The position numbers and the translations under genes were made by a program. A DNA stretch of 64,000 nt. Origin: a virus. Positions 20,089 through 36,476 of this stretch are shown piece after piece. The DNA is taken from positions 7,199 through 71,198 of IMG/VR virus record IMGVR_UViG_3300041409_000508, one strand, 5' to 3'. The notes under the pieces were generated by a model. That model worked only from the letters and a program-made list of their open reading frames with translations, did not search any database and had not been told where the DNA came from. Numbering within the stretch: the stretch's first letter is position 1; every line of letters starts with the position of its first letter.

Positions 20089-20109
20089 CAGTGCAGTTTG
20101 TGGTAGTAT
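20089..20109 (+). promoter_or_regulatory. Phage promoter motif, 1-unit form
   Basis: CAGTGCAGTTTGTGG-TAGTAT with ATG 7 nt downstream. Confidence 0.75.
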
Positions 20110-20116
20110 CTGAGCT

Positions 20117-20260
20117 ATGCGAACACGCTGCCCAAAATGTCAGGTGCTGATGTCACATGGAGCTTCAGCAAATGAGTGCGCCAACTGTGGAACTACCTGG
20201 CGGCATCTAGACCGAAACCAAACTAAAGAATCCCCAACCCCAGAGACAAACCCTCAGTAG
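20117..20260 (+). CDS. Leaderless 47-aa CxxC..CxxC miniprotein (not in track)
   Basis: MRTRCPKC...ECANCGTTW; antisense cassette behind the motif promoter. Confidence 0.65.
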   Translation: MRTRCPKCQVLMSHGASANECANCGTTWRHLDRNQTKESPTPETNPQ

Positions 20261-21422
20261 CAGTCGGGATGCGCGTCGTAATCGTGCCTAGCTGATTAGC
20301 CACGAGTGGGATCATGATGGTGTCCAGCATGCAGCGTTGCAGCGGGAAACCAGGGCGCACGCTGACATCGAGTGGATCGTTGCACTCCAGCGCCGGGTTG
20401 CAGATGGTCTGTATCGTGAACGTCTCCGGCAACGCGATGTAGCGCCGTAACAGCACCTCGCCGGCCAACTCGACATCAGCATCTACCTGTAGTAATGGTG
20501 AACTGTAATAAGTCGGAGACGGACCGAACTGCGGGAATGTCGTTTTGTTCCAAGCCAGTGGCGAGTTTGGATCAGCATTAAATGTGACGATGAAATCTGT
20601 GATGCTGGACGGGTCCGACCCGTATGCCGTTACTATGTTGTGCACGTCAGTACGCTTGACGACTCGTTTAACAGTGGAGATCGCGCCACCAGCGCCACCC
20701 TGCAAAGTAGCAACAGGATGGCTGAAGTCAAACTTCAGAGAATAGACGATCATCTCACCGGCGTTGTTGAACCGAATACCCGCATAATAGAACTTGATCA
20801 ACTGAGCAAGATACGCGTATGAATCGTCTTCGACTATCTGGTCACCGATGATAGTGATGACATCGGGATCATAACCTTGCCAGTAGATAGGCACCCGAGC
20901 ATTGAGATACATCCCATAGCCATCGGGTGACAAGCCAGGATAAGTGGCTTGCTGAGGTATGGCTATGCCGTTGACAAGTCGTTGAAAGACGTTGCGGTGC
21001 GAGTCTCCGTTATTGAGAGGTAAAGGGAAGACAAGTTTGTTCTGCTGGAGCTGAGCAATACGGTCCAAAGCAGTGATGACGATTGGGCCATAAGGCGCAT
21101 CGTCCTGGCTGGCTTGTTCGATCCGATGGTAGCCGAGAGGCACATACTCCCTGTCCCCATTAGCAAACTCGATGCCTCGCTCAATGTAGATCTCCTGTCC
21201 GAACGGCTGCACCTGATCCCAGTACGCTCCTGGGATCGTGATCGTCAGGGTACTCTTGATGTCGGACAGCGACTGGATCGTCACGTTACCCGAGATCACC
21301 GGCACCTCTGTACCGGTCGGGTTCGTCCCGAACTGAGGTACCGGATTACACAGGACAGCTCTCACAGCGATCTTGTGCGGTCCCTGCAGTGCGCTGAGGA
21401 ACCGAGCTGAAACCGGATGCAC
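20223..21422 (-). CDS. Minor tail protein (DUF5047-like)
   Basis: VSARFLSAL..PH, PFGQEIYIERGI and EYVPLGYHRI motifs. Confidence 0.8.
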   Translation of the reverse strand: MHPVSARFLSALQGPHKIAVRAVLCNPVPQFGTNPTGTEVPVISGNVTIQSLSDIKSTLTITIPGAYWDQVQPFGQEIYIERGIEFANGDREYVPLGYHRIEQASQDDAPYGPIVITALDRIAQLQQNKLVFPLPLNNGDSHRNVFQRLVNGIAIPQQATYPGLSPDGYGMYLNARVPIYWQGYDPDVITIIGDQIVEDDSYAYLAQLIKFYYAGIRFNNAGEMIVYSLKFDFSHPVATLQGGAGGAISTVKRVVKRTDVHNIVTAYGSDPSSITDFIVTFNADPNSPLAWNKTTFPQFGPSPTYYSSPLLQVDADVELAGEVLLRRYIALPETFTIQTICNPALECNDPLDVSVRPGFPLQRCMLDTIMIPLVANQLGTITTRIPTATEGLSLGLGIL

Positions 21423-21440
21423 TCAGCTCCCTCGCTAGAA

Positions 21441-21461
21441 CAGTGCAGTCTGTGGTATGTT
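21441..21461 (+). promoter_or_regulatory. Phage promoter motif, 1-unit form
   Basis: CAGTGCAGTCTGTGG-TATGTT with GTG 6 nt downstream. Confidence 0.75.
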
Positions 21462-21467
21462 GTGGTA

Positions 21468-22130
21468 GTGAGAAAACCTCGACTGCTCGATCTGTGTTGC
21501 TGTGCCGGTGGCAGTGCCCGCGGCTATCAACTCGCCGGCTTCCACGTGACCGGTGTCGACATCAAGAACCAGCCACGATACGCCGGCGACGAATTCCATC
21601 GAGACGATGCTATCGAGAGTTTCTGAAAGAACATCATCACGAGTTCGACGCCGTCCACGGGTCACCGCCGTGTCAGCGATTCTCCGATCTGGCCCAAACG
21701 TAACGGTAACGCATCGGCGTGGCCGGACCTGTTGACTCCGATGCGTGAGGCAATGCGAGCCACCGGACTACCTTATGTGATCGAGAATGTCGAGGGCGCT
21801 CCCCTGATCGATCCGGTATGGTTGTGCGGCACCACATTCCCAGAATTATCGGTGATCAAGCATCTGGGTTTCGAGTCGAACATCGTCATTCCCGAGCGTC
21901 CTTGTGTTCGACCACACCCGTTGGTATTCACGTATGACAAGCGCAAGAATCAATACGGCAAAGTGGATCAGAACACGTCATTCGTGTCGGTCAACGGCGG
22001 TGGTAACTGTACGGTCGCTAATGCGCGCCGTGCGATGGGCATAAACTGGATGACCAAAGACGAACTCAACGAAGCGATCCCACCTGCGTACGCTGAATAC
22101 ATCGGCCGATTCCTGATCCAACAGCTCTAG
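21468..22130 (+). pseudogene. C5 cytosine DNA methyltransferase interrupted by two frameshifts
   Basis: LLDLCCCAGG (motif I), SPPCQ (IV) and IENV (VI) lie in successive frames; extra AG at about 21615-21619 and extra C at about 21693-21695. Confidence 0.8.
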
Positions 22131-22327
22131 AGCCTCAGCCACGACGGGTCAGGGTTGCTGCAAACCGAACCGTCCTTGTGCTGTGGGTGCTGCCACTCGG
22201 TGCACTGCCGACAGCACATAGTGCTCGGAGGCTCACACCGCAGTCCATGCGTTGAGCAACACAGGCCGGCGTAGTTACCCGCTGGTAGCGACTGACGCAG
22301 CCTCTCACGTTGCCAGGAATGCATCAT
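22127..22327 (-). CDS. Small Cys/His-rich protein
   Basis: CSTHG..CEPP...CC..C..W.HP.H.DG..C; coupled to the upstream gene. Confidence 0.5.
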   Translation of the reverse strand: MMHSWQRERLRQSLPAGNYAGLCCSTHGLRCEPPSTMCCRQCTEWQHPQHKDGSVCSNPDPSWLRL

Positions 22328-22668
22328 AAAGATTGCCTCACAATATAATCACGATGTGCACGTTGTGCATTCCTTAGCTCAACATCTGGATGATTTTCGC
22401 CAACAATAGTGTCTAAAACTGTCACAGCAGCAATAATAATGATAACAGCACCAATACATCCGACTGTGATTGATGCCATAGCCCAACCCGCTGTATCTAT
22501 GTGATGCAAAGATCCCTCAAAACCTACGTAAACACCAAAAGCAATTAAAGCCAAGAAAAACAACAGAAACACAGCAAACACACGCACCCAACGCTTATAT
22601 GATTGCAACGACACTCGCGCATCCTCAAGTGCGTCAAGTAAATGCTGCTCTTCCAGTGGGTCATCCAT
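22324..22668 (-). CDS. Two-TM membrane protein (AT-rich insert)
   Basis: TAGACT -10 located 7 nt before the ATG; two TM helices. Confidence 0.6.
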   Translation of the reverse strand: MDDPLEEQHLLDALEDARVSLQSYKRWVRVFAVFLLFFLALIAFGVYVGFEGSLHHIDTAGWAMASITVGCIGAVIIIIAAVTVLDTIVGENHPDVELRNAQRAHRDYIVRQSL

Positions 22669-22691
22669 AAGAGCAGTCTATCGTACCAACG

Positions 22692-24110
22692 TTATGCCAC
22701 GCCTACCAGCGCATCAGCAGGAGTGCCTTGCAATGCAAGCACTGCTGACCATGTTGCATTAGCCACAAGCTCAGTATTCCAATCTGTGTAATTAGTGATC
22801 AAAGTCGCCCAGGTAACCGTAGCCCCTATGATTGCCAGATCAGGCATGCCGACCTCAGTCAATGGCACAGTAAGTGTGTTTCGGTGAGACAAGTGCGCCG
22901 GCTTGACATAGTTGTAGGTCCCGACTCCCGCATACATACTCTTCAGTGCTAGATTCACTGGTGTCTGCAGCAACATAATGATACCTAACGACAACACCAG
23001 ATCCACTGCTGCTACCTCGATATCATCCTGTGTGAACAGCGAAATAGTGACTGTCCGCGGCGAGTGTATGTCGGTCGATGCAATAGCGGTACGCTTGCCG
23101 ACGATCGGGAAGAATCCGAGGCGTGTAGTGCGCTCCGTCTCCTCCCAACCGATCAGCATGACTGAGCGGTTGAGGTACGGCGCACTGGGAAACTTCAGCC
23201 AAACTGCAGACATCGTCGGAGTGATCTGTGCACTTGTGCGCGTGACGAAGTCAGCGTTGCGTAATGCCACCGCAGCGCCGTAGCTGATGGCTGCAGCACC
23301 ACCTGTCACGACGAACGCCCCTGCAGCTACCGCGGCTGGTGTCGTCAGCAGTTGGTAATCCCACACCAAGCCAGCGTCCAGGCCGGCAGTACTCATTGGC
23401 TCACCGATCTCCGTAGCGCCCGAAACCGTAGCTACGCCGGTCCAGTCATCAGCCTTCCAGCCGAGGTAAAGCACCGCGGTCCAGTTCGCCTCGACACCGG
23501 CCATCGGCGGGTAGGTGATGTTCTGAGCGCTGGGGTTGAGTTGATAGGTCGTTGCGGCCGGCGTGCGCTCGCAGTTGCGGAAACACGCCATCTGAGCGAT
23601 CACGTCGCTGCCAGACGCTCCGGTGACACCGCCCGTGACACTGACAGTCGGGGTGGCTTCACTGCTCAGAGCCCGCTTACCGAACAGCCCGATGTTGTCG
23701 GTCTGCATCATGACAGTCCAGCCCGCGGGGCACACCACCGTGCCAGTGCCAGAGTTTCGGATGCTCGCCCAGATCACCAGCAGGTCGCCTTCGGCATAAC
23801 CCACCGGTACGGTCGGGGACACCGCGATACCACTGGCGCTAACCGCTGTACTCGACGCTACGAACGTCGGCAGGCCGGTGTCGACAGCGGACACCCGGTA
23901 GTAGTTGATCACACCAGGAGCGAACTCGTAGTCGATGAGACTGGCCGCGGTGCTGACGATCGGCACCGCGCTGCCACCACGCACCTGCGACCAGTGAATC
24001 TGATCTGTTGAAACCTCAAACAGTGCTACGTCAGCGGTCGCAGGCAGCGAGGTCGCCGACAGCAGGACTCTCGCTGTGGTGTCGTCGTATGTAAGAGACA
24101 GTGAGGCCAA
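22692..24110 (-). CDS. Minor tail protein (distal tail-like with inserted domain)
   Basis: First large gene after the tape measure; VRGG, DYEF.PG..NYYRV and VWLK..P.LN motifs. Confidence 0.75.
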   Translation of the reverse strand: MASLSLTYDDTTARVLLSATSLPATADVALFEVSTDQIHWSQVRGGSAVPIVSTAASLIDYEFAPGVINYYRVSAVDTGLPTFVASSTAVSASGIAVSPTVPVGYAEGDLLVIWASIRNSGTGTVVCPAGWTVMMQTDNIGLFGKRALSSEATPTVSVTGGVTGASGSDVIAQMACFRNCERTPAATTYQLNPSAQNITYPPMAGVEANWTAVLYLGWKADDWTGVATVSGATEIGEPMSTAGLDAGLVWDYQLLTTPAAVAAGAFVVTGGAAAISYGAAVALRNADFVTRTSAQITPTMSAVWLKFPSAPYLNRSVMLIGWEETERTTRLGFFPIVGKRTAIASTDIHSPRTVTISLFTQDDIEVAAVDLVLSLGIIMLLQTPVNLALKSMYAGVGTYNYVKPAHLSHRNTLTVPLTEVGMPDLAIIGATVTWATLITNYTDWNTELVANATWSAVLALQGTPADALVGVA

Positions 24111-24163
24111 GGAAAAATACTCCAGTCCTCTAGTTCACCCGTACGGAGCAACAGCTAGCTTCG

Positions 24164-24184
24164 CAGTACAGTCTGTGGTATAGT
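24164..24184 (+). promoter_or_regulatory. Phage promoter motif, 1-unit form
   Basis: CAGTACAGTCTGTGG-TATAGT with ATG 6 nt downstream. Confidence 0.75.
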
Positions 24185-24190
24185 GTAGTA

Positions 24191-24433
24191 ATGAGAGAAA
24201 ACAACATTGACGAGTTACTCGATATCACTCCGAAACTCAAAGGGCGCTACGATGATGCTCGGTATATCTATGTGATGTCTGCAGCCGGCAACGAAGTATC
24301 CATCAGAATCGGAAATCAGACGCCAGTCTTTGTTGATGCAGTAGATTTCTTACGACTAGTTTCGCACGTTGTTCTTGATATCGTTTATGGCCCATCGCCT
24401 ACTGATATAGCTAACGAAGCGCGACGCAGCTAG
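24191..24433 (+). CDS. Leaderless antisense cassette gene
   Basis: 80-aa ORF starting at the predicted +1 of the motif promoter. Confidence 0.7.
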   Translation: MRENNIDELLDITPKLKGRYDDARYIYVMSAAGNEVSIRIGNQTPVFVDAVDFLRLVSHVVLDIVYGPSPTDIANEARRS

Positions 24434-24566
24434 CCGGATCATGCTCGCGCTGGTCGACTGGCTGGTGTAGCTCGTGGCACACCGCGCCACAGTCACACGG
24501 CGTCGAACACTGCCGTGTGACCTCCCAGTGCTGGTGCCGTCGAGCGCGGCGATGTTGCGGCATCAG

Positions 24567-24644
24567 CGCATCGACCTCCAACGCTACTTGTGTTGATCAA
24601 GCGCAGTTCCAACGCGAAGCTCAGTTGCGTTGGAGGTCGATGCG
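24567..24644. repeat. Perfect 18-bp inverted repeat
   Basis: cgcatcgacctccaacgc (24567-24584) / gcgttggaggtcgatgcg (24627-24644). Confidence 0.85.
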
Positions 24645-24648
24645 TCTA

Positions 24649-25842
24649 TCAGACGATGGACCCGCGGCCCATGCGTGCGGCTACCGCGACACCTTGAGTC
24701 ATCATGCTGATCTGGTTGGTGACCATGTCTCGCAGCTCCGTCTCCCCGATTTTCACTGTGACCTGATGGAAGTGAGTACCACCCATAGCTGAGTTCGGCG
24801 TGATGAATCCACTGCCACCCATACGCAGGATCTCGGGACCATGCTCACCCACTAAGTAACTCTTACCACCCATCACCGAACCGCCCATAGCCTTGCCACC
24901 ACCGAAAATCGATGAGAAGAACGATCCGATGCCATGGAGAATGCCACTGAAGAATCCACCGATGCCGCCACCACTGCTGGTGCTGGTCGTGCCTCCACCA
25001 GTAGCACCGGCAACACCACCGATCGCTCCTGCACTGCTGGTGATGCCACCCAGACCGGCGAGGATCGGAGCTATGAAGTTCATGATGCCGGCTAGCCAAC
25101 CCATCAACACCTGCAACAACGGCAGCAGGCCGATCAGAATGTTGGCAAAACTGGTGAACAATGAGATCATCGTCGGTAGCATGGATTCGATGATCGGCAG
25201 GATCTTCGCGCCCATGCCAGAGAACGCAGTCATCCAGTTCTGTATCGCCGCCACCACCTGAGGCTGCAGCAGGAACTGCACCAGCTTCTCGCGTAGACTA
25301 CCCAGTGAAGTAGCGATACCGCCCAAGCCGGCACCAAGAACGGGGAAATACACGCGCGCTAGTTGATTGACATCACCGGCGAAACCAGCCCAGAATCCTT
25401 GCTGGATGATGCCGTACAAATTCTTTAACTGTGGCTCAAGTAACCGAACAGCCATGACAGCGTCTTTCATGGCTGGCGCCATGTTCCGTGTTGCCGCTAC
25501 AAACTGTGCCGGTGATGCCGCACTGATGGCCGTCGAGAAGTTGGCCATCGCCATCTGTGCGATGTTGATCGGATTTACCAACGCAATCAAAAAACCAGGG
25601 ATGATAAGAAATATCTTGGCTATCTTGCCCAACGCATTGAACACGCCGTTGACCAGTGGTTTGATATTACCGGTCAGCGCAGCCCCGAACATCTTGCCGA
25701 CGTTGACGACGGCGTCGCCCATCTTACCGAGGACAGCAGTCGCCTGTTTGGTGGACGCAATAAGGTTGCTGACAGATCCCTTGAAGTTGATGAAGACAGT
25801 TCGTTGAGTGGCCATCGCACCACTGGCAGAGGCGGCAGTCAC
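24649..25842 (-). CDS. Tape measure protein (short)
   Basis: Ala/Gly-rich amphipathic helices; C-terminal A.GG.V..GKSYLVGEHGPE motif; follows the chaperone genes. Confidence 0.8.
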   Translation of the reverse strand: MTAASASGAMATQRTVFINFKGSVSNLIASTKQATAVLGKMGDAVVNVGKMFGAALTGNIKPLVNGVFNALGKIAKIFLIIPGFLIALVNPINIAQMAMANFSTAISAASPAQFVAATRNMAPAMKDAVMAVRLLEPQLKNLYGIIQQGFWAGFAGDVNQLARVYFPVLGAGLGGIATSLGSLREKLVQFLLQPQVVAAIQNWMTAFSGMGAKILPIIESMLPTMISLFTSFANILIGLLPLLQVLMGWLAGIMNFIAPILAGLGGITSSAGAIGGVAGATGGGTTSTSSGGGIGGFFSGILHGIGSFFSSIFGGGKAMGGSVMGGKSYLVGEHGPEILRMGGSGFITPNSAMGGTHFHQVTVKIGETELRDMVTNQISMMTQGVAVAARMGRGSIV

Positions 25843-25857
25843 TTACTGCGCCTCCTT

Positions 25858-26787
25858 TTAGCCTGAGTAAACTTTAGCCATCCATGACGGATTCGAGCTG
25901 TATAAGTCGCCAGGTTTGATCAAGTTTGATCCTGCCAGTTCGTCATAGCCACGGGACTCAGGCCCTGACGTCGGCATATAAGCGGTGTTTCCTTCCCAAC
26001 TGCCGCCCTCAGACCCACCTAACGAGTTGAAACCAGGACCAGGCGTATTGATGCCGCTAGCGTCGTCTTGCGCAACCGTTGTCCAGCCGCCTAAGTTACT
26101 CCAGTTTCCCTCAGTGTCGCCCGCAGCTTCGTCCTGGCCTACCGTACTGATTCCTGGCCCCAGGTCTGACCACACCGAATCATTGAACCCAGAGCCGTAG
26201 TCAACCTCTTGCTGAGTTGGAAAATCGGACGGCTTGGTCAGCGCGTCGCCAGTGTCTCCGCTGTTATCTCTACTGCCCCAACCGGACAGCGACTTGTCCA
26301 TCGCCTGTTGAGTGGCCACCTGTGCGGGGTCGTCAGAGGGCGGTGAGCCGCTCATAGCCATCGACGTGCTCTGAGTCCATGGAGTGAAAGAAGACGGAAA
26401 ACCACTGGACGATGACGAACTGGCACCGAAAGGCCCATCAGAGTCCGACGGAGGTATCGGTGGCACAGTCGATCCTACGTCGCTACCGGGTGGGGCGTTA
26501 TCGGATATCGCTGACTTCATGTTGTTGAGCATGTCTCCAGGCAGCGAGTTATTGGCTCCGAACATGCCCGACAAGCTATTAGGATCGAAGTTAGTGCTGT
26601 ACGCATCAGAGTAGGTGTTAGCGCCTTCGATCGGCTGCTCCGGCCCCACCGTGGCGCCGGCAACACCTGTGTTCAGTCCCGCGTCACCAGGGTCAGGTGA
26701 GTCGAACTGATATGCCTGACTGTCTGACGCGGCTTGTGATCCCCCGAAAGCATCACCACCATCCGCATCACCGATCGGATCACTCAT
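25858..26787 (-). CDS. Acidic low-complexity (D/S/G/P) protein
   Basis: 309-aa open frame, ATGA-coupled to the upstream gene; very few basic residues. Confidence 0.65.
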   Translation of the reverse strand: MSDPIGDADGGDAFGGSQAASDSQAYQFDSPDPGDAGLNTGVAGATVGPEQPIEGANTYSDAYSTNFDPNSLSGMFGANNSLPGDMLNNMKSAISDNAPPGSDVGSTVPPIPPSDSDGPFGASSSSSSGFPSSFTPWTQSTSMAMSGSPPSDDPAQVATQQAMDKSLSGWGSRDNSGDTGDALTKPSDFPTQQEVDYGSGFNDSVWSDLGPGISTVGQDEAAGDTEGNWSNLGGWTTVAQDDASGINTPGPGFNSLGGSEGGSWEGNTAYMPTSGPESRGYDELAGSNLIKPGDLYSSNPSWMAKVYSG

Positions 26788-26936
26788 CCTGACATCTGCC
26801 GTCCTTCTGGATCTTCTTTTTCGTTCTGTTTGTTCAATACCTCAATAGCAGTCTTAATGCCTCGCCATCCTTGATCCGCCCAAATATCAGGTGAAATTCC
26901 GGTAGCAACCGCAAGCTCTATGGTAAGCCGAGTCAC
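26784..26936 (-). CDS. Tail assembly chaperone, second (-1 frame) part (not in track)
   Basis: VTRLTIELAVATGISPDIW...; lies in the -1 frame overlapping the chaperone end at GGATCCTAC. Confidence 0.65.
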   Translation of the reverse strand: MTRLTIELAVATGISPDIWADQGWRGIKTAIEVLNKQNEKEDPEGRQMSG

Positions 26937-27328
26937 CGACCCGGCTTCGTAGGATCCATAGATTTACTGTGTATGTCTTCTAGCATGGACATCACAGCGT
27001 CCGCAATATCTGTCGAGCTACCTTCAGCTTCTGTCACTCTCTCGATAACCACCAGCAGTTCGTCATAATTCAGTGGACCGGATACCGCGTCAGGTTGAGG
27101 TAGAACATCATAGTTGTCTACAAACTCGTCAAACGAAGGAACTTCGTGCTCGCCCTGTTCTTTGAGCGCAAGATAAGCCAATGAATAGCAGAAATCCATC
27201 GACGGATTCTCTGCCATGTTTCGCAATGTATTGCGTGAACTACGTTTCTCCCATTTCTTGACATCACGCGCGCGTGCTGTCAGCATGAACGGCTTACCAC
27301 CATCAGGAGTAATCAAGAATGACTGCAT
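26933..27328 (-). CDS. Tail assembly chaperone
   Basis: Lies between the major tail and tape measure genes; RDVKKWE motif; ends DPT. Confidence 0.7.
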   Translation of the reverse strand: MQSFLITPDGGKPFMLTARARDVKKWEKRSSRNTLRNMAENPSMDFCYSLAYLALKEQGEHEVPSFDEFVDNYDVLPQPDAVSGPLNYDELLVVIERVTEAEGSSTDIADAVMSMLEDIHSKSMDPTKPGR

Positions 27329-27846
27329 TACACTGATGTTCCTATCACTGTGATTTCATAAGATACAGATGTGCCTGCAGCCGAATTAGCAATCTGCAGG
27401 AGGTCAGTCGAGCTGGCGGTCACCGGATACGCCGTAGCATCAGCGGGACCGGCTACCCACATCGCGGTAGCGCCTGGTCGCAGGATCGTGGTGTGCGTCG
27501 TCGCACCGAACAGGCCGGTGAACGTGGTAGTGCCACCGCCTATCACTACGTTGTTGGTGTTAGCTGCCAACGCTGAAATGATCAGAGCCTTGATCCTGGC
27601 GAACGTCAGCGTCGCTCCCGAGCTGGGGTCTGCCAGCGCACCGGCGAAGTCGATGTTCTCCGTGGCACTGGCTGTCAGTGTCCGAGACGACCACCACGCG
27701 GTGTCGGCCGCACCAGCGACCGTGCCGCTGATCAGCGACGCACCGTAGGACCGCTGTAAGTTAGCACTGGACGTCCCTAGCGCCGGAGTGTTAGCGATCG
27801 TTGCCGCTACCGACAGGCTGATCACTGTGGAGAGTGCCACAGACAC
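27328..27846 (-). CDS. Putative tail-associated virion protein
   Basis: GGAGG SD; Thr/Ala-rich beta protein. Confidence 0.6.
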   Translation of the reverse strand: MSVALSTVISLSVAATIANTPALGTSSANLQRSYGASLISGTVAGAADTAWWSSRTLTASATENIDFAGALADPSSGATLTFARIKALIISALAANTNNVVIGGGTTTFTGLFGATTHTTILRPGATAMWVAGPADATAYPVTASSTDLLQIANSAAGTSVSYEITVIGTSV

Positions 27847-29090: not shown

Positions 29091-29092
29091 TC

Positions 29093-29260
29093 ATGTCTAA
29101 TAACAGCCATCAGTGCCCATGCCATCTGCATACAAATGGACGACTCGATCTAAAATTAGCTGCATGGATTGAGCAAGATGAAATACGCCAAATACATCCA
29201 GACTATGACGCATGGCTGTACAATCATGGGTTAAATCAAACTAAGCAAGCCCACCCATGA
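29093..29260 (+). CDS. 55-aa antisense miniprotein (not in track)
   Basis: Starts 2 nt after the previous stop; MSNNSHQCPCHLH... Confidence 0.55.
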   Translation: MSNNSHQCPCHLHTNGRLDLKLAAWIEQDEIRQIHPDYDAWLYNHGLNQTKQAHP

Positions 29261-29573
29261 TTCCGAGCTGCATGTAGATGTCGGGATCGACACGCATTAC
29301 CATGCCACTGCCGACGTCTCCTAACCCCACCAGACCATCCGGTGAGATCCGGCGTACGAACCATCGGGCAGCGAGCCGGATAGTGCCGAGCTGCACATCG
29401 AGCGGCACCGTCCAAGGTCCGTTGTAGCTCAGATCTGGCCGGTGTGCCTGGACCCAGACCATCGCTGAGTCCAGTGTCCGTTGCAGTGCTTCGTCATCAT
29501 GCGGGGTCAGCGCATTGTCCAGCGTCTGATCATTCTTCAGTGCTTCCAGCGTCACCCACTGAACTTGAGCCAC
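29241..29573 (-). CDS. Head-tail connector (gp6/gp15-like)
   Basis: VTLEALK..DDEALQR and LGTIRLAARWFVRRISPDG motifs. Confidence 0.8.
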   Translation of the reverse strand: MAQVQWVTLEALKNDQTLDNALTPHDDEALQRTLDSAMVWVQAHRPDLSYNGPWTVPLDVQLGTIRLAARWFVRRISPDGLVGLGDVGSGMVMRVDPDIYMQLGIMGGLA

Positions 29574-29814
29574 TCTCACCTCCGAATATCGAATACCAGA
29601 GAGCAACTATTCGACGAGCGTCTAATAATCGATCTATGTCGGGATGATCGATTCGTTGGTGAGACAGATCTTCAAGATTAGCGTCAATCACTGCAATAGT
29701 GCCTGCATTATACCAAACGTCACAATAACCAACTAGAATAAACGCAGATTCTGCAGGACTGCCTTTGACCCCTGGACGAAGATAGTCAGCTCTCATATCT
29801 CTGTCTGACGTCAT
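29530..29814 (-). CDS. Small protein, paralog of 37884..38081
   Basis: YNAGTIAVIDANL...HPDIDRLLDAR. Confidence 0.6.
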   Translation of the reverse strand: MTSDRDMRADYLRPGVKGSPAESAFILVGYCDVWYNAGTIAVIDANLEDLSHQRIDHPDIDRLLDARRIVALWYSIFGGESGSSSVGDAGSTEE

Positions 29815-29833
29815 ACCTCAGCAACTGTCCGGG

Positions 29834-30328
29834 CTAGCGCTTAGATGCGTCCGGCTTCGATGACGCTGTGGGTGTCGACGTCGAGTACCGAGTAACGCTA
29901 GGCCCAGCGTCTTTCGCTGCCAGCGCATCAGTTTTGACTGCCTTGCTCTCCCGAGTCTGCCGGCCGCGGGGTGTCTTGCCGTCGTCTTCGGTGGTCTCGT
30001 CGTCCACCTCAGGATCACCCTCGAAACCGAGTGCGGCAAGATTCTTCTTAGCAGCCTTCACCCGCTCATCGTTACCGTGGCGCGTGGCGTTGCGGTGCTC
30101 CTGCATGGCTTGGCGGATCTGACCGGCACGCTGGTAATTCACGCCCATCTCCTGTGCCTTGACGATGCCAGGGTCAGGGTTTCCCTGCTGGTCCAAGGTG
30201 TTTTCCTTCGCTGCTTCTAGATCAACATTCTCCAGATCAGGGATGTCAGTGACCGGAGCCGAGCCCGCGGTCTCTGGATCTGGCAAGACGTACTTCTCCG
30301 GCCCTGTGTCAGTGTCGTCGTCAGCCAC
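29834..30328 (-). CDS. Acidic/charged head-region protein
   Basis: Open frame between the capsid accessory genes and the connector. Confidence 0.55.
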   Translation of the reverse strand: MADDDTDTGPEKYVLPDPETAGSAPVTDIPDLENVDLEAAKENTLDQQGNPDPGIVKAQEMGVNYQRAGQIRQAMQEHRNATRHGNDERVKAAKKNLAALGFEGDPEVDDETTEDDGKTPRGRQTRESKAVKTDALAAKDAGPSVTRYSTSTPTASSKPDASKR

Positions 30329-30683
30329 CAGGCACCACCAATACTTCGACACGGAAGGTCACCGTTGGCGACCCTGTCCCACCCACGGTAGCCAACACCT
30401 GAATGTACTCAGCCGGTACATAAGCATTACTCTGCGCACTGCCTATCGCGGTCATCTGCGTGATGGCCGAGCTGGTCAGCGACGTCCAGGTAGAGCCGTC
30501 CGGGCTGGTCTGCAGCAGGACGTCCAGTGTCTGTGTGGTGCCGCCCACCGCGGAAGCGAACACCCACAGCCCGACGTTGCTGGTTGCACCGGGATTGGCG
30601 ATCGGTCCCGATGAGTACGTGCCGGCAGCTCGTAAGGTGGCTACCGGTATCGCGGTATCCACCAGCATTGGTCTTAGTGCCAT
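30321..30683 (-). CDS. Putative capsid decoration protein
   Basis: Downstream of the capsid gene; TLDVLLQTSPDGSTWT motif. Confidence 0.65.
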   Translation of the reverse strand: MALRPMLVDTAIPVATLRAAGTYSSGPIANPGATSNVGLWVFASAVGGTTQTLDVLLQTSPDGSTWTSLTSSAITQMTAIGSAQSNAYVPAEYIQVLATVGGTGSPTVTFRVEVLVVPGG

Positions 30684-30692
30684 ACCGCTCCC

Positions 30693-30899
30693 TTAAACGA
30701 GTGTTGCAGTAAAGTCGATTGGATTACTGGCTAACAATGTATTCAACGCGGTCACCGCAGCGGCCGCGTTAGCGCCCAAGTGAGCGACAAAATGATCGCG
30801 GCCGCTGTAGTACACCCAGACATCGCCGTTGGACTGAATCTCAAAATTAGTTATCTGTGCGTCATGCCAATACGAGTTACCCGCGCGTACGTACGCCAT
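30693..30899 (-). CDS. Small hypothetical protein
   Basis: GAGGA SD; co-oriented after the capsid gene. Confidence 0.55.
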   Translation of the reverse strand: MAYVRAGNSYWHDAQITNFEIQSNGDVWVYYSGRDHFVAHLGANAAAAVTALNTLLASNPIDFTATLV

Positions 30900-30939
30900 A
30901 CTTCATCCTCTCAGTCAGTAGTCAATTGACTACTCTCCG

Positions 30940-32361
30940 TTAGAATGATGGCGTGACCAAGCCGGTCCCACTGATCTTTGACATAGCGTTGGCATATCTG
31001 CGCATAGAATATGCGAAGTAACCGTACAGGACCAATAAGATCCCAAGGTTAGCGGCTGCCGGCTGTTCGCATCTTAAAAAGACCGGAGCTGCGGGGTCCT
31101 CCCATAAGTGGCACTCGTCAGTAGCGATTACATACGCTTCATCCTGGTTAGTACCTGCACCCGTGTTCGTGGCGATGTTGTTGTCCACTACAGCAACCAT
31201 GCCATTCGGCAGGATGCCTCTCGCGCCCCGGCCGTAGGAGGTGGCGTAGTTCTCGCCGCCGCGGTTGTCAGCGATGTTCGGCTGGCCGAAGAGTGGCCAC
31301 TGGGAGCTGAGTTGGCTCTGCAGCCAGTACCAGCGCCTACTGTGCATCAAGACCACGTCAGGCTGTGCGAAGCCCAGCAATGCAGCCTCAGTAGCAGCAG
31401 CGCCGGCCAGGAACTTCGGCCAGATCTCCACACCGGACGGGTTGGCATCGGTGTAGGTGATCGCTGCAGCCACTGCGGACAGCCCCGTCGTCGCCTGGTT
31501 GATCAGTGTCGAGTCCAGGTTGGTGGCGTAACGACGGAAGAGGTCATCCATGACGATCTCTTCGATGCCGGTGCCACGTTCCGCAGCCTGCCGAGAGATG
31601 GTCTGCTGACCGGCTGCTGTCTGGATGTTCTCCGTCAACAGCGTGTCATCCATGTTGGTTTCGGAAACTGACACGTTTTCTGTTGCTTGTGCGGCTACTG
31701 AGCTTGGCGTCGTGATCTGTGAGATGTTGACTGTCATACCACTAGCCGGCAGGTCGTGATGATTGCAGACATCAGCGAACGGACGCAACGCCGCCACTGC
31801 AGGCGCATACATATCGGTGAGGTATTGAGGCACCGTGAGGCCGGTGAAGGCGCCCGTGCCTACTGCACGCTCTAGATACTGGCCACGCTCGATCTGCTCT
31901 TCATGCATGTGCTTGGCAAGTCGCGTGCTGGCACCCACATCACCGAAGAGATGCTGACGGATCACATCCTGGCAAAAAGCTGCACCCTTGCGGTCGTTAC
32001 CTTTATGATAGGTACGCTCTTCACGCCCTACTCGCGTCACCTCATCATAAGCAGGTTTACGCGTGCCGGTCGGCGTGATCTCACGCGCTGTCTTCTGGTC
32101 GCTCATCTCTTCGGACTTCAGCCGAAGAATCTTCGCTAGCTTGTTATTGATACCCTCAATGTCATGCTGTACCTGTGTACCCGCGACCTCTAGTTCGGCG
32201 ACGCGGTTGTCCTCTTCAGGAGTGAGGTTAGACCGTCCCTCCTGACGTGCTTGGTTGATAATTGCTAGAATCTCCATGCGCATTTTAGTGCGACGCTTCT
32301 CAGCGGCTTCCTTCTCGAACTCGGTACCTGCTTCCAGATCCCCGATGGTAGTACTCGGCAT
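30940..32361 (-). CDS. Major capsid protein (HK97 fold) with N-terminal scaffold-like coiled coil
   Basis: GLTVPQYLTD, TAAGQQTISRQ and VVDNNI motifs; follows the protease. Confidence 0.9.
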   Translation of the reverse strand: MPSTTIGDLEAGTEFEKEAAEKRRTKMRMEILAIINQARQEGRSNLTPEEDNRVAELEVAGTQVQHDIEGINNKLAKILRLKSEEMSDQKTAREITPTGTRKPAYDEVTRVGREERTYHKGNDRKGAAFCQDVIRQHLFGDVGASTRLAKHMHEEQIERGQYLERAVGTGAFTGLTVPQYLTDMYAPAVAALRPFADVCNHHDLPASGMTVNISQITTPSSVAAQATENVSVSETNMDDTLLTENIQTAAGQQTISRQAAERGTGIEEIVMDDLFRRYATNLDSTLINQATTGLSAVAAAITYTDANPSGVEIWPKFLAGAAATEAALLGFAQPDVVLMHSRRWYWLQSQLSSQWPLFGQPNIADNRGGENYATSYGRGARGILPNGMVAVVDNNIATNTGAGTNQDEAYVIATDECHLWEDPAAPVFLRCEQPAAANLGILLVLYGYFAYSMRRYANAMSKISGTGLVTPSF

Positions 32362-32382
32362 AGCGGTCCATCCTTCCACTCA

Positions 32383-32410
32383 TTGACCGCCAGAGGCGGG
32401 GGTCTATAAT
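32383..32410 (+). promoter_or_regulatory. Near-consensus sigma70-type promoter antisense to the late operon
   Basis: TTGACC-16 nt-TATAAT with ATG 6 nt downstream. Confidence 0.75.
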
Positions 32411-32416
32411 CACTAC

Positions 32417-32578
32417 ATGACTGAAGATCGATTAACGCATATCAAGCAATCTCTTGATGATATGAAAACAGCAGAGACTGTCTACATTGAAGGATTTATA
32501 AGTTATCAAGACGTACTATGGCTGGTTGATGAATTAACTAGCCTTCGTCAGCGAGTAATGCGCTCCGAATCAGACTGA
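32417..32578 (+). CDS. Leaderless 53-aa antisense miniprotein (not in track)
   Basis: MTEDRLTHIKQSLDDMK...DVLWLVDELTSLR; AT-rich. Confidence 0.65.
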   Translation: MTEDRLTHIKQSLDDMKTAETVYIEGFISYQDVLWLVDELTSLRQRVMRSESD

Positions 32579-33521
32579 TCGACCGACCGTTAGCTCGCTT
32601 CTCTTCAGGCTTGTCAAATCTCGCCTGTAGCTGAGTTAATGCTGCTCTCGCAGCACCGGAGGGGAGCCGGTCGACTTCGTTAAGCAAGCGATGTGCTCTT
32701 GCTGAAATGCTAGTGTGCGGGTTAGCTCCGTAATTAACCGCTGATACGTCTCCGCAGTGCAAGTCGAGCTCCAGCATGGTGAAGGTCGTGTACTCATCAT
32801 CCCACTCACCTTCCTGCAGCATAGCGGCGAAACTCATCTGGTCGACACAGCCGTCTTTGATCGCCACCATGAGATCCGAGACGTCTGTGCGCAGCGGATT
32901 AAGCCATGCTTCAGTGGCCAGTCCGTCCTCACTGGAACTGAGCTTCAGTGTGGCGTTGGTGGTTCTAGCCATGGTCAGACCCTTGTGATTGACCAGGAAC
33001 GCCACATCAGGTTGTCGAGACAGTGACGCATCGAATGCTCGCCCACTGACCTTCTCGGTATAAGGGCCGAACATATCCCACATCTCATACGGCGTCTCCA
33101 CCACAGAAGCCACCCCGGACAGCCGATGCCAGAGACTGTCGCCGTCGTCCTGTGGTGCTCTGGCACACTCACACGTGGTGTCAGAGCAGCCGCGGCGGTG
33201 CAGACCGGCTGTCAGTTGTGCGGGAAACGCCAGCGTGCGGGAGGTGCCGACGTCGAGTGGCTGTGCTGAGCGTGCCAGCTTCAGCCCTGGCACGTCGGTG
33301 TTCTCGATCGCTTCCCGGCGCATACGCGCAGCACCGGCCCGCGTCACCTCTAGATCGACCACGCGGTCTCCCTTACTCTCATTAGCATAGAGCGCCGATA
33401 GCTGCGCGTTCGCTTGATCTTTGGTTTCGTGACAGCCCATTGTCGAACCATCGGCGTCTTTCAGCACTGCCCACTGCGAAGCACTGCATGTGCCACCGCT
33501 ATGCTCAACGTGATAAGGCAT
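32538..33521 (-). CDS. HK97-family prohead protease
   Basis: G.ASV, AF..SL, FLVNH, ARTTN.TL.L, DQMSFA and DVSAVNYGANP motifs. Confidence 0.9.
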   Translation of the reverse strand: MPYHVEHSGGTCSASQWAVLKDADGSTMGCHETKDQANAQLSALYANESKGDRVVDLEVTRAGAARMRREAIENTDVPGLKLARSAQPLDVGTSRTLAFPAQLTAGLHRRGCSDTTCECARAPQDDGDSLWHRLSGVASVVETPYEMWDMFGPYTEKVSGRAFDASLSRQPDVAFLVNHKGLTMARTTNATLKLSSSEDGLATEAWLNPLRTDVSDLMVAIKDGCVDQMSFAAMLQEGEWDDEYTTFTMLELDLHCGDVSAVNYGANPHTSISARAHRLLNEVDRLPSGAARAALTQLQARFDKPEEKRANGRSISLIRSALLADEG

Positions 33522-33988
33522 TAAGCGTTGCTTGGGTTTTTCACACCACTAGGGGTACTCGGCACTCCAGTGTCATTAGGTGCCGGTGTCGTCGAATTAG
33601 CGTTCGAGTCATCGTCATCAATCGTCAGATCACCATGCAGCGGCGCGAAATCGTCGGCATCACCAGCTGATTTCTGAATACCCACCGCTTCGTCAGCGTC
33701 TTTCTTGTCCTTGTCCTTCTCATCCTCGGTAGCGGCGTCCTTCTTCACCGAAATCTTATTGTCGTCCTTGTCGAACAGTGATTCTTTGTCATCTTTCTTA
33801 TCGGACTCCTTCGGCTTGCCGGTGTTACTCTTGGTGTCAGCTCGATCCAAGGTCGCAGCCCGCGTCAACTCACCCACGCGGAAGCTGCTGGCCTGGCGCT
33901 GGCTGATCGGCGTCACGTTCTGCCGGGTAGTCGGCGGCGTCGCAGCACCCGGACGGAACGTGCCGGTACGTGCGCGATTGACAGTCAC
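33521..33988 (-). CDS. Charged low-complexity protein
   Basis: AGGGAG SD before GTG 33988; D/K-rich; TAATG coupling to the protease. Confidence 0.55.
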   Translation of the reverse strand: MTVNRARTGTFRPGAATPPTTRQNVTPISQRQASSFRVGELTRAATLDRADTKSNTGKPKESDKKDDKESLFDKDDNKISVKKDAATEDEKDKDKKDADEAVGIQKSAGDADDFAPLHGDLTIDDDDSNANSTTPAPNDTGVPSTPSGVKNPSNA

Positions 33989-34009
33989 GAGAGATCTCCC
34001 TTGTGTTGA

Positions 34010-34030
34010 CAGTACAGTCTGTGGTAGGAT
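34010..34030 (+). promoter_or_regulatory. Phage promoter motif, 1-unit form
   Basis: CAGTACAGTCTGTGG-TAGGAT with ATG 7 nt downstream. Confidence 0.8.
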
Positions 34031-34037
34031 GTAGCTC

Positions 34038-34292
34038 ATGAACATTGACGAACTTAAATCTCAATGGTGCGGATCAAAAGTTCGCACCGAACGACCACTC
34101 ACCGCAGAAGAGTTTCCTGAGTGGCTCCCTATGGGGGTTCTCAGTGAAGACTGGTTTCCGGGTTTCAAGTTCGGTGGTGAAGGTGTTGTTATTAACTTCA
34201 CCGAACGATCAGGAAAGATTTGGATGCAGACTGACTGGGGCATGGAATGGGTTATTGATGATCAAACAGAAATCATGCTTGTCACTTGGTAA
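34038..34292 (+). CDS. Leaderless antisense cassette gene
   Basis: 84-aa ORF that fills the gap up to the portal stop. Confidence 0.7.
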   Translation: MNIDELKSQWCGSKVRTERPLTAEEFPEWLPMGVLSEDWFPGFKFGGEGVVINFTERSGKIWMQTDWGMEWVIDDQTEIMLVTW

Positions 34293-34293
34293 T

Positions 34294-35523
34294 CTAAGCA
34301 TCGGATTCCGCAGGTACTGGAGCAGTAGGCGACGGTGTTGGTGGTCCAGGCTGTGGGCGTGGCGGCCATAACTGGTCGAACTCAGCTCTGTCCGCAGCAG
34401 TCAGCGGCGGTAGATCGTCAAGCAAACGTGCTTCAGACGGTGTCAGTACACGACCAGCTACTTTCATGTTTATGATCTGTGCTTGCGTAAGTGGATCCAT
34501 GCGTAACAGTGCGTTGGTATTCAACTTACAAAACTGACGATTAGGAAGCAGCTTATTAAGACTATTCTCACGTCGAATAACTGTCGGACCTAAGCTCATC
34601 GTCAAGAACTGCAGGTTTCGCTGTGTCACATTTGCATAAGTCACCGATGACCCAGAGATGGCGGAGTCTATAAGGTCGCTAGGACAGTCGAAGAATCGTG
34701 CTATCTCAGTCGGTCCAAGCTTGCGAGCTTCGATCCACTCCATTCCTGTCTGCTCAGCCTGGACCATGTTGTATTCCCAGTCCTTGCCAGTGACCAATAC
34801 GTCACCAGACGCTACTGATTCTTTGACCAGTGCTTTGACGTCTCGCATCTGGTCACGAGTCGGTGTCGGGAGCATGGTGTTCTGTAGATGTCCACGCGGA
34901 ATACCGCCGTTAGTGAACCACGAGATAGCGAAGTCCTGAATACTCAGATGCTCCCCGATACTCCATGCTGCATACATAATCGGAGAAAGACCAAGATGAA
35001 AGCCTGCGACAGTGTACTGTTTCTCGTGCCAAATCTGCCGCGGTGGGTAGGGATGGCCACGGATGAAATACTCCACCAAGACATTGTCTACGATATTCAC
35101 TGACACCCAGGCGAGTGGCACCAGTTGGATAACGGCCGGCAAGCCGAAACCGTTTCGTTCAGTGATCAACCCAATGCTGTTGCCCGCTCTGTCTAAGTCA
35201 AATTGGGTGCTATACATCCACTCCATATAGTCGACGCACTCACCACCAGGGTTGATCAGGATCGGTGGCCTGCTCACCTCAACGTCAGCAATGCCGTACT
35301 GGCCCTTGCGGTAGCAGTCGATCGGGAACGTCGAGATCAGGTTGGCTCGCAACCGTAGGCATGCCCAGACAGCTGAGTGTCGCAGTGCTGAGTCATTGTT
35401 GATCATATGGCCAGGAGCGAGCTGCATACTCATGCGATGCGGGATCACATCAGACGCCATCGCACCGGGGTACTCCCCGAAGTACGGGCCTTCGATATTA
35501 GCAGTCCTGAAGAGCAAGCTCAC
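34294..35523 (-). CDS. Portal protein (HK97 family)
   Basis: ALRHSAVWACL, GLSPI, F.NGGIP.G, EIARFF.CP, TYANV and LTPSEAR motifs. Confidence 0.95.
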   Translation of the reverse strand: MSLLFRTANIEGPYFGEYPGAMASDVIPHRMSMQLAPGHMINNDSALRHSAVWACLRLRANLISTFPIDCYRKGQYGIADVEVSRPPILINPGGECVDYMEWMYSTQFDLDRAGNSIGLITERNGFGLPAVIQLVPLAWVSVNIVDNVLVEYFIRGHPYPPRQIWHEKQYTVAGFHLGLSPIMYAAWSIGEHLSIQDFAISWFTNGGIPRGHLQNTMLPTPTRDQMRDVKALVKESVASGDVLVTGKDWEYNMVQAEQTGMEWIEARKLGPTEIARFFDCPSDLIDSAISGSSVTYANVTQRNLQFLTMSLGPTVIRRENSLNKLLPNRQFCKLNTNALLRMDPLTQAQIINMKVAGRVLTPSEARLLDDLPPLTAADRAEFDQLWPPRPQPGPPTPSPTAPVPAESDA

Positions 35524-35685
35524 TGAGTGCTTGCCCCCTGCAGATGCTCTGGCCACGGCCAGGACAGCGCTACCGACAACATCCGCAGCCGGTCCAGCTC
35601 CATCTCCAGCCGCTCTACGTCTGTGCAGCTAGAGCATAGTGTGGTCTGGTCTTCGGAGCACAACATGCAGGCTCCCTTGCTCTGG

Positions 35686-35706
35686 CAGTACAGTCTGTGG
35701 TAGTAT
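35686..35706 (+). promoter_or_regulatory. Phage promoter motif, 1-unit form
   Basis: CAGTACAGTCTGTGG-TAGTAT with ATG 6 nt downstream. Confidence 0.8.
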
Positions 35707-35712
35707 CTAGTT

Positions 35713-35883
35713 ATGCAAAATATCGCCTATAGCGACAAACACATTGTTCATCGTAATGGAGATCCTGAATATCTATGGCCACTCTGTCGTATCTCACAAG
35801 AGCATCGTCCTAAAAAGTTTATTCTCACCGATCGTCTTGTTGACTGCCCACACTGTCAAGAACTACTTAACAGAAGGAGGTGA
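35713..35883 (+). CDS. Leaderless 56-aa H..C..CxxC miniprotein (not in track)
   Basis: IVHRNG..EYLWPLCR...TDRLVDCPHC. Confidence 0.65.
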   Translation: MQNIAYSDKHIVHRNGDPEYLWPLCRISQEHRPKKFILTDRLVDCPHCQELLNRRR

Positions 35884-36057
35884 CATCTCGCGCTGGCGTC
35901 GGGCGACGAGCGCAGCAGCACCCAGCAGCACGATGCCGGTCACCGCCAACCCAACCCAACCGATCCAGACAGCCGCCAAGAAGCCCAACCCAGCCGCCAC
36001 CAGCAAGATGCCCAGCACCTCTAGCGCCAGGATCACGATCTCATTGACTAATCTCAC
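35863..36057 (-). CDS. Small two-TM protein between terminase and portal
   Basis: Hydrophobic hairpin typical of this position in HK97-like phages. Confidence 0.65.
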   Translation of the reverse strand: MRLVNEIVILALEVLGILLVAAGLGFLAAVWIGWVGLAVTGIVLLGAAALVARRQREMSPPSVK

Positions 36058-36293
36058 ATCAGGAGACTAACCATGCTCGCATCAACACTACTTATCGGGG
36101 CACTCATCATGCTTACGCTCACTGCTTGTTCGTGTGTACTGATTCAATATCACACAAGACGAATCATGGAGTATCAAGAAACTCTTGTTCGTCGTCAGGA
36201 CACTGCGGTGTCGTCCGACTCATCAGTTCATAGGTCAGCGTAGCCAAACCCCACCAAGCCAGTCCCGATACACCCACGATCAGGAGTTTTCTC

Positions 36294-36476
36294 ATGAAAT
36301 GGCAAGATCGAGTAGCACTTATCGCTATCGCGGAAGTATTAGCTGAGCATCTTGAGAGTTGTGAAGACATGAAAGATAACGCGCTACTTCCTAGTGACCG
36401 AGTTCGAGGTGCGATAAAGAGTCTTACGGACAGCTATGCTGACGACTATCAGCACATCGATTCCAACACATCGTAA
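36294..36476 (+). CDS. Antisense small protein
   Basis: AGGAG SD; 60 aa; overlaps the terminase 3' end. Confidence 0.5.
   Translation: MKWQDRVALIAIAEVLAEHLESCEDMKDNALLPSDRVRGAIKSLTDSYADDYQHIDSNTS

Follow-up and report, generated by a model that had tools for sequence, protein, structure and literature searches.

Background

Morons, the extra genes of lambdoid phages, bring their own promoter and their own terminator and stand out by an odd base composition, and one of them, bor of phage lambda, lies antisense. Repeated sites of a different kind are found in the cluster A mycobacteriophage L5, whose stoperators keep one orientation relative to local transcription. The present work concerns a set of small genes that are set backwards, each unit behind its own predicted promoter, between the virion genes of a phage known from IMG/VR record IMGVR_UViG_3300041409_000508. 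The window, that is the whole stretch of DNA analysed, is 64,000 nucleotides long and corresponds to bases 7199-71198 of a single contig of 71,198 bp (55.6% GC); coordinates below are those of the window.

Two further arrangements come close to the one described here. The promoter-early stem-loops (PeSLs) of T4-type phages are described as conserved early promoters that mark where ORFan shuffling has its breakpoints (Arbiol et al. 2010, PMC2839356; Comeau et al. 2014, PMC4122927). In the noncontiguous operon, as its published account presents it, an antisense gene with its own promoter is nested in an operon, an example being ith within the cI/tha operon of phage 80alpha (PMC11087260). Relevant to translation is the report that in mycobacteria leaderless RTG starts at +1 are common and sufficient for initiation (PMC4633059).

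Virion operons generally count as conserved, compact sets of genes that all point one way. In the clade to which this phage belongs, about a third of the junctions between virion genes (the figure is approximate) are occupied by backwards, promoter-bearing slots, the content of which differs between phages with virion proteins mostly 75-99% identical. Comparison with these relatives shows discrete cassettes of promoter plus open reading frame (ORF), gained, lost and replaced at the same gene boundaries.

Antisense cassettes at virion-gene junctions

The virion genes lie on the minus strand, from ~38.4 kb down to ~10 kb, and all eight cassettes sit between them in plus-strand orientation (Table 1). 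A sequence-only reading of the window had described at least eight promoter-plus-ORF units facing the late operon, seven of them behind a shared promoter motif, all starting 6-7 nt past the -10 box, AT-rich, ending for the most part across or against the opposing stop codon, and mostly followed by no evident terminator. These points were borne out. All eight sites were found, motif copies stand at seven of them, and the start codon lies 6-7 nt past the -10 box in 8/8 units. The distance from TAnnnT to the start is 7 nt at promoters 20089, 28892 and 34010 and 6 nt at 21441 (where the start is GTG), 24164, 27859 and 35686; the copy at 27859 is diverged, with 3 mismatches to the 15-mer described below. 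The eighth unit, at 32417, has a different promoter in which TTGACC and TATAAT, 16 nt apart, match the canonical hexamers at 11/12 positions, followed after 6 nt by ATG. With the start codon so close to the -10 box, the mRNA would begin at the start codon and be leaderless.

Two parts of that description stood only in part. Most units are indeed mini-genes, but the one at 21468 is a broken 221-codon methyltransferase gene. Positions 21480-22106 align over 218 aa with DNA methylase gp6 (224 aa) of Streptomyces phage Annadreamy at 45% identity (tblastn, E 1.6e-53), and the gene is interrupted by an in-frame stop and a short out-of-frame stretch, reflecting either a pseudogene or assembly errors. 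The homology came from tblastn; Pfam gave nothing significant for the separate methyltransferase pieces. The second case is the pair at 28920 and 29093. The former has a motif promoter, but the latter, a 55-aa ORF at 29093-29260 that starts 2 nt past its neighbour, has a TAAAAT merely 4 nt before its ATG and no convincing promoter of its own.

At seven of the 11 plus-strand ORFs the end reaches across or lies against the converging gene's stop (by 38, 4, 17, 20, 41, -1 and 28 nt). Cassette 1, for example, overlaps the 3' end of the minus-strand gene 20223-21422 by 38 nt, and the last codons of cassette 4 are the antisense of the 3' end of gene 28022-28486. The cassette segments average 44.1% GC against 56.7% for the backbone, and their third-position GC content (GC3) is 0.31-0.46 against mostly 0.57-0.78.

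Cassette 8 is the most elaborate. Its leaderless ORF at 35713 is followed by two ORFs led by Shine-Dalgarno sequences and without the motif, 36073-36243 (56 aa, membrane-like) and 36294-36476 (60 aa). These two are separated from the promoter at 35686 by the antisense of 35863-36057, a small conserved gene for a membrane protein that also occurs in a distant relative (L023). Both downstream ORFs probably depend on read-through from 35686, with a weak TAATCT box at 36049 as a possible alternative promoter.

Table 1. Features of the virion module, promoter copies and terminators. Positions in nt of the window; promoters, leaderless ORFs and terminators are predictions.
Feature	Position	Strand	Remarks
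DUF5047 minor tail protein	20223-21422	-	
Tape-measure-like protein	24649-25842	-	
Major head protein	30940-32379	-	
S78 prohead protease	32538-33521	-	
Portal	34294-35556	-	
Terminase large subunit	36449-37912	-	
Cassette 1	promoter 20089-20109; leaderless ORF 20117-20260	+	motif; 47 aa, CxxC...CxxC
Cassette 2	promoter 21441-21461; GTG 21468; unit to 22130	+	motif; start of 221-codon DNA methyltransferase gene
Cassette 3	promoter 24164-24184; leaderless ORF 24191-24433	+	motif; 80 aa
Cassette 4	promoter 27859-27879; leaderless ORF 27886-28038	+	diverged motif; 50 aa
Cassette 5	promoter 28892-28912; leaderless ORF 28920-29090; unit to 29260	+	motif; 56 aa
Cassette 6	promoter 32383-32410; leaderless ORF 32417-32578	+	canonical TTGACC-16-TATAAT; 53 aa
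Cassette 7	promoter 34010-34030; leaderless ORF 34038-34292	+	motif; 84 aa
Cassette 8	promoter 35686-35706; leaderless ORF 35713-35883; unit to 36476	+	motif; 56 aa
Class-1 promoter copies, early region	40220, 41679	+	motif
Class-2 promoter copies, early region	41487, 42272, 42919, 43361, 44042, 45288, 46195	+	motif and TAnACT
Minus-strand motif copy	48433-48481; motif starts 48461; ATG 48433	-	heads 115-aa ORF, replication module
Minus-strand class-2-like copy	57668-57716; starts 57716; ATG 57668	-	132-aa ORF upstream of DNA polymerase A
Hairpin terminator	43200-43235	+	early region; -22.6 kcal/mol, z -3.5
Related hairpin terminators	43926-43960, 46670-46704	+	46670 copy -22.7, z -6.0

The cassettes lack terminators. 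Between 19500 and 38500 there are 12 terminator-like sites where 10.8 would be expected, and not one of the 12 is placed past a cassette stop; the 75 nt beyond five cassette stops fold no better than shuffled sequence (z from -0.71 to +0.95). Hairpin terminators do exist in the early region of the same genome (Table 1), so the bare ends of the cassettes do not simply reflect a phage that lacks such signals. The hairpin at 46670-46704 keeps its stem despite changes on both sides. After two of the early hairpins come a ~27-nt element that is itself repeated (43245, 43294, 43974) and, beyond it, a class-2 promoter; this composite resembles a PeSL.

Two small genes of another kind are also found at virion-gene junctions. 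Those at 29530-29814 and 37884-38081, both on the minus strand, are paralogues of low GC content that share an 80-nt repeat (family D11, 73% identity). Both have a Shine-Dalgarno sequence, neither has the motif promoter, and neither aligns in the close relatives compared. A backbone-strand gene at 22324-22668 has a cassette-like composition (GC 0.43, GC3 0.32) and a TAGACT 6 nt before its ATG; it is kept in one relative (L019) at 77% amino acid identity and may be a co-oriented leaderless accessory gene.

A shared promoter with a conserved spacer

The motif common to seven of the cassette promoters is CAGTRCAGTnTGTGG. Allowing up to 2 mismatches, it has 14 matches against 1.47 expected, a number reached by 0/100 shuffles, and 13 of the 14 are on the plus strand. 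A weight matrix trained on 13 of the genome copies finds ~18 copies in the genome at a cutoff of 19 bits, 16 of them on the plus strand and 2 on the minus strand; within the virion module, none is on the strand of the virion genes. The same motif families (D3-D6, D8 and D9) come out of an independent repeat finder.

By its sequence context the 15-mer is the spacer of a sigma-70/sigma-A-type promoter. The parts of this promoter are a weak -35-like T(T/A)GC.. hexamer, a spacer of 17-18 nt that holds the near-invariant 15-mer, an extended -10 element (TGn) that is formed by the last three bases of the 15-mer, and a -10 box of the form TAnnnT, represented by TAGTAT-like hexamers. At the -35 position, with a spacing of 16-18 nt, TTG is present in 32/48 class-1 copies against a background of 4.2%, and most of the others have TAGC or TCGC. 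A TTGACA that overlaps the motif was considered as the -35 element and set aside, its spacer being 12-13 nt where the T(T/A)GC-type hexamer fits 16-18 nt. A role for the motif as an RNA hairpin was likewise rejected, as the palindrome spans merely 9 nt and varies among copies.

The strongest regularity is the position of the start codon, which was outside the weight matrix. Taking this genome together with 14 other loci, 48/64 non-identical motif copies have ATG or GTG at 6-7 nt (background 7.6%, p 2.7e-40), and the relatives alone give 38/47. A second class of copies has an additional box, TAnACT, 10 nt further on, and at four sites, that of the helicase gene among them, an ATG follows 6 nt past this second box.

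Copies of both classes are found outside the virion module (Table 1). The class-2 copy at 44042 heads a gene for a 402-aa helicase (44079), and the minus-strand copies head ORFs among the genes of DNA replication; it is therefore most likely that unmodified host RNA polymerase transcribes the cassettes early. They use the general promoter of the non-virion genes, and these genes are presumably early.

Gain, loss and exchange among relatives

Relatives of this phage in IMG/VR comprise a set of close contigs, the portal proteins of which are 83-96% identical to that of the window, and two more distant ones at 71-76%. Among the close relatives the DNA of the virion genes is 78-92% identical, and the alignments break at the cassette positions. 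Their virion modules hold 36 antisense and 2 sense cassettes; adding the seven of the window gives 43/45 antisense. Both of the sense cassettes encode proteins of 215-222 aa behind class-2 promoters. In total, 75 cassette ORFs (redundant and overlapping loci included) fall into 52 families. In the motif survey nearly every copy was seen to head an ORF of at least 25 codons, an observation made without a tally of ORF-less copies; the sole ORF-less copy noticed (L017) is cut by the end of its locus.

The number and positions of cassettes vary among close relatives, and cassette presence and swapping, for which the sequence-only reading had looked to relatives, are both seen there: junctions may be filled, empty or replaced, with breakpoints at the motif or the ATG. 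The junction between genes 28022 and 27328, where cassette 4 sits in the window, was compared in seven phages; it holds six unrelated ORFs and is empty once (L003), the two genes there lying 6 nt apart and the motif being missing. The junction between 19703 and 20223, where cassette 1 sits in the window, is empty in two relatives (L019 and L009), whose backbone genes are 5 nt apart. The site of cassette 3 holds other ORFs in three relatives (L001, L014 and L020), and cassette 6 has a homologue with 70% amino acid identity in another (L002). The ORF family of cassette 7 lies between the portal gene and the scaffold-side gene 33521 in the window and upstream of the terminase gene in two relatives (L021 and L022), so at least one cassette has moved between junctions.

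Alignment of six junctions gives the breakpoints more exactly. A conserved stretch runs from the start of the downstream virion gene and its Shine-Dalgarno sequence through the -35-like element, the motif and the -10 box, and homology ends at or just past the ATG of the cassette. The other breakpoint is the stop codon of the upstream virion gene. Since the end of a cassette ORF is in this way encoded by the antisense of the backbone, several unrelated cassette proteins have the same last residues.

The two relatives at 71-76% portal identity (L023 and L024) have no motif and no cassettes across the virion genes, which form a compact operon; the few gaps examined there hold co-oriented small genes. 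The arrangement is therefore confined to one clade, and it looks derived. When distant relatives of high GC content (L027-L036) were scanned for antisense ORFs, the result was swamped by spurious ones.

Coding content of the cassettes

Three of the ORF families encode proteins under strong purifying selection, with pairwise dN/dS values of 0.10-0.15 (34038), 0.01 (35713) and 0.04-0.14 (36294). Values for two others are higher, at 0.24-0.75 (36073) and 0.42 (32417). No tblastn match was found among the loci compared for the ORFs at 20117, 24191, 27886, 28920 and 29093, so it is their architecture that argues for their being genes.

When 10 of the mini-proteins were compared with Pfam and PHROGs, none had a match above threshold; weak matches pointed to a zinc ribbon (20117) and an FtsL-like protein (36073). 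The 34038 protein, the sole window ORF searched against a large protein database, retrieved itself and one 90-aa member of the clade, and nothing outside the clade. An ESM Atlas lead that would make it a DUF4314 protein (0.88, all leads being below 0.9) was unconfirmed by Pfam and is not adopted. The clade has 57 distinct cassette proteins no longer than 150 aa, with a median of 64 aa. Cysteine makes up 3.0% of their residues against 0.8% in backbone proteins, and 13/57 have a CxxC; about a fifth of these small proteins are Cys-rich and zinc-ribbon-like. To call the products effectors, as had been suggested, is a guess, and so are roles in host takeover or counter-defence.

Explanations for the antisense arrangement

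The explanation that we favour, and regard as reasonably probable, is that the units are autonomous accessory cassettes in which a sigma-A-type promoter is joined directly to a small ORF, moron-like in kind, noncontiguous-operon-like in placement and PeSL-like in their exchange. Expression would be early and by the host sigma-A polymerase. The cassettes are inserted backwards at junctions of the virion operon; on the promoter side they abut the ribosome-binding site of the next virion gene, and at the other end the ORF overlaps the stop of the gene before it. If noncontiguous operons are a guide, the backward orientation, with no terminator, would keep a strong early promoter from reading sense-wise into virion genes, and late transcription through the cassettes should switch them off, as shown for ith of phage 80alpha. 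Cassette transcripts would continue for some distance into the converging gene, to be ended by Rho or by collision. Related phages exchange the content by recombination, for which the conserved promoter and the virion genes to either side would act as homology arms; as the comparison shows, the ORFan at each junction therefore differs from phage to phage.

Several observations sit less easily with this explanation. Two of the motif cassettes in relatives are sense-oriented, one cassette of the window holds a broken methyltransferase gene, and the motif-less accessory inserts at 29530-29814 and 37884-38081 are co-oriented with the operon. The five ORFs for which relatives gave no match weigh in the same direction. 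The promoter combines a weak -35 element with an invariant spacer of no known role, so it may need a phage factor. The exchange could also be explained by nothing more than recombination in the flanking virion genes, leaving no special part for the promoter. Finally, start sites, timing, transcript ends and translation are all predictions made from DNA. The observation itself is statistically strong, the behaviour of the units as cassettes has good comparative support, and the regulatory interpretation is tentative.

The sequence-only reading had gone further and proposed that antisense transcription tiles the virion operon and holds the late genes down early in infection, by collision or antisense RNA, while delivering effectors. 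Weighed here as a rival, this would be the main selected function, and the ORFs would be secondary passengers. All 7/7 motif promoters of the module do face the late operon with no terminator past them, the ORFs at 36073 and 36294 appear to need transcription that crosses the antisense of 35863-36057, and mutual silencing is shown for antisense noncontiguous operons in the staphylococcal phage 80alpha (PMC11087260). Yet the ORF that follows nearly every motif copy surveyed (ORF-less copies being untallied), the strong constraint on three of the ORF families, the shifting number and positions of cassettes, the junctions that close relatives leave empty, and the compact, motif-free operon of the relatives at 71-76% portal identity all argue that the proteins are what is selected. 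Empty junctions in close relatives and the missing motif in distant ones also imply that any antisense control is not an essential, conserved function; repression of late genes in this way is not required by the data, and as the primary purpose of the arrangement it is unlikely.

A second possibility is that the orientation is a matter of packing and has no regulatory meaning. The upstream edge of a backwards cassette can at the same time provide the next gene with its ribosome-binding site, and the cassette's 3' end can overlap the previous stop; as only backwards cassettes do both, it is backwards insertions that would survive in a compact operon. This fits the finding that in 37/48 class-1 copies the -35-like element is closely preceded, on the cassette strand, by CTCC or CCTC (a Shine-Dalgarno sequence in complement), as well as the frequent overlap with the converging stop. 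It also fits the empty junction in L003, where the downstream gene starts at another codon and has its ribosome-binding site within the upstream gene. Nevertheless, small co-oriented inserts that bring a Shine-Dalgarno sequence of their own fit the same operon (29530-29814 and 37884-38081), and packing leaves the missing terminators unexplained in a phage that has terminators elsewhere. The idea is compatible with the autonomous-cassette explanation and does not exclude it; as the whole story it is doubtful.

A bolder proposal, to which we give little credence, would make the 15-nt spacer the operator of one phage switch. A regulator made after early transcription would bind all ~18 copies, ending early expression, silencing the eight head-on promoters and licensing late transcription. 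Any ORF would fit a slot at the leaderless ATG, since no ribosome-binding site need be carried, and the backwards cassettes would then be a late-gene timing device as well as a slot system.

Least probable of all is that the 15-mer chiefly serves to bind protein, as an operator or a roadblock in the manner of the L5 stoperators, with a phage regulator bound to it genome-wide and the promoter being incidental: the conserved block does lie in the spacer, where sigma-70-type polymerases make few base contacts, in class-2 copies it sits 10 nt (one helical turn) further from the active -10 box, and in one subfamily it includes the 9-nt palindrome ACAGTCTGT, but that palindrome varies among copies, the orientation of the motif is antiparallel to transcription in the virion module and parallel to it in the early and replication modules, its tight coupling to TAnnnT and to a start codon at 6-7 nt would be expected of a promoter, and no candidate regulator was identified. 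An operator or roadblock role alongside promoter function is possible.

Genome setting and neighbouring features

About 69 bp are repeated at both ends of the contig, which is therefore taken to be the circular assembly of a complete phage genome. Rightward of the virion module, plus-strand genes extend to ~46.6 kb and include those for a ferritin-like protein, an MbnB/TglH/ChrH enzyme and the helicase; beyond them lies a minus-strand replication module with a primase-polymerase and DNA polymerase A (55063-57297). The host is very probably an actinobacterium, judging from capsid homologues with 60-68% identity in records named Streptomyces, Micromonospora, Streptosporangium, Pseudonocardiaceae and Mycobacterium, and from an Rv2525c-like domain in an endolysin-like protein; the virus itself is probably siphophage-like.

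Megablast of positions 20000-36500 against a phage collection, in which records near the window may be missing, gave no match, and the best matches of the portal protein in that collection are below 30% identity. When genome contigs were scanned for the motif, the 23 matches were single and scattered over unrelated taxa, and a prophage of this clade was not among them. Of the 57 ORFs and gene fragments compared with Pfam or PHROGs, none was seen to encode an integrase. In locus L037, at 2738-5091 on the plus strand, a match to phrog_733 (annotated excisionase) adjoins an FtsK/SpoIIIE-like protein.

Several neighbouring features deserve mention in their own right. An HNH endonuclease gene at 17102-17902 (phrog_1492, E 6.5e-67) lies on the plus strand, antisense in the tail-gene region, and is without a motif promoter. 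A minus-strand ORF of 1112 aa at 10655-13993 is filled with many diverged repeat copies, with spacings that are mostly multiples of 60 nt (families D1, D2 and D10); it has no Pfam or PHROG match and may encode a repetitive tail fibre or tape-measure-like protein.

On the plus strand at 38212-41205, the gene for the ferritin-like protein (PF12902) adjoins that for the MbnB/TglH/ChrH-type RiPP-modifying enzyme (PF05114, E 8e-95). Between the two is a variable, Cys-containing leaderless ORF of 53 aa (40248-40409), and together they are a possible peptide-modification module. Further on, two neighbouring early genes on the plus strand have a common 70-nt 5' end (42980-43049 and 43398-43467, 90% identity) and the same N-terminal ~23 residues, which indicates a recent duplication or exchange of gene starts. 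At 45746-46069, a 117-nt unit is repeated three times in tandem (68-72% identical) inside the minus-strand ORF 45734-46156.

Significance and comparison with known systems

Within the terms and library searched, the literature held no account of leaderless antisense cassettes tiling an actinophage virion operon. For a virus, this way of carrying accessory genes and exchanging them is unusual. It offers a clean natural system for the acquisition and shuffling of small ORFans by phages, and a natural test case for convergent transcription in early and late timing. The promoter, at ~45 nt, leaderless and with no need of a ribosome-binding site, may serve as an actinobacterial expression part, and the pool of Cys-rich mini-proteins is a place to seek host-takeover or counter-defence functions.

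Like the stoperators of cluster A mycobacteriophages such as L5, the 15-mer is a short asymmetric site of an actinophage genome that recurs some 20 times in short gaps between genes; unlike them, it is not uniform in its orientation relative to transcription, each copy lies within a promoter with the start codon 6-7 nt past the -10 box, and no repressor is known for it. Like morons, the cassettes lie between genes that are adjacent in relatives, 5 nt apart at the one empty junction and 6 nt at the other; they have at sequence level a promoter of their own that is not present at the empty junctions, and their base composition is deviant. They differ from morons in lacking a terminator, in being antisense in nearly all cases, in having one common promoter and in being leaderless.

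With PeSLs, as these are described in the accounts cited above, the cassettes share a short, highly conserved, sigma-70-like promoter that is repeated many times (here ~18 copies, with early timing predicted), an association with small ORFans, and breakpoints of insertion, deletion and replacement that fall at the motif, here at the six junctions examined. The early region even has terminator-repeat-promoter composites, with hairpins at 43200 and 43926 upstream of class-2 promoters. Where the two part company is in the virion module. The cassettes there are without a stem-loop terminator, they are single units scattered through a conserved core module where PeSLs are described as arrays in hyperplastic regions, and they are antisense to their neighbours, leaderless and found in a phage of a probable actinobacterial host. 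Because the terminator was looked for and not found, the cassettes are full members of neither the moron nor the PeSL class.

The noncontiguous operon, as far as its published description goes, supplies the remaining element: a gene that has a promoter to itself lies antisense inside an operon, here at sequence level, and overlapping convergent transcription would be expected. What sets the present case apart is that there are eight units in one virion operon, with one stereotyped promoter and hypervariable content, known here from sequence. The system as a whole works like a blend of morons, noncontiguous operons and the PeSLs of T4-type phages.

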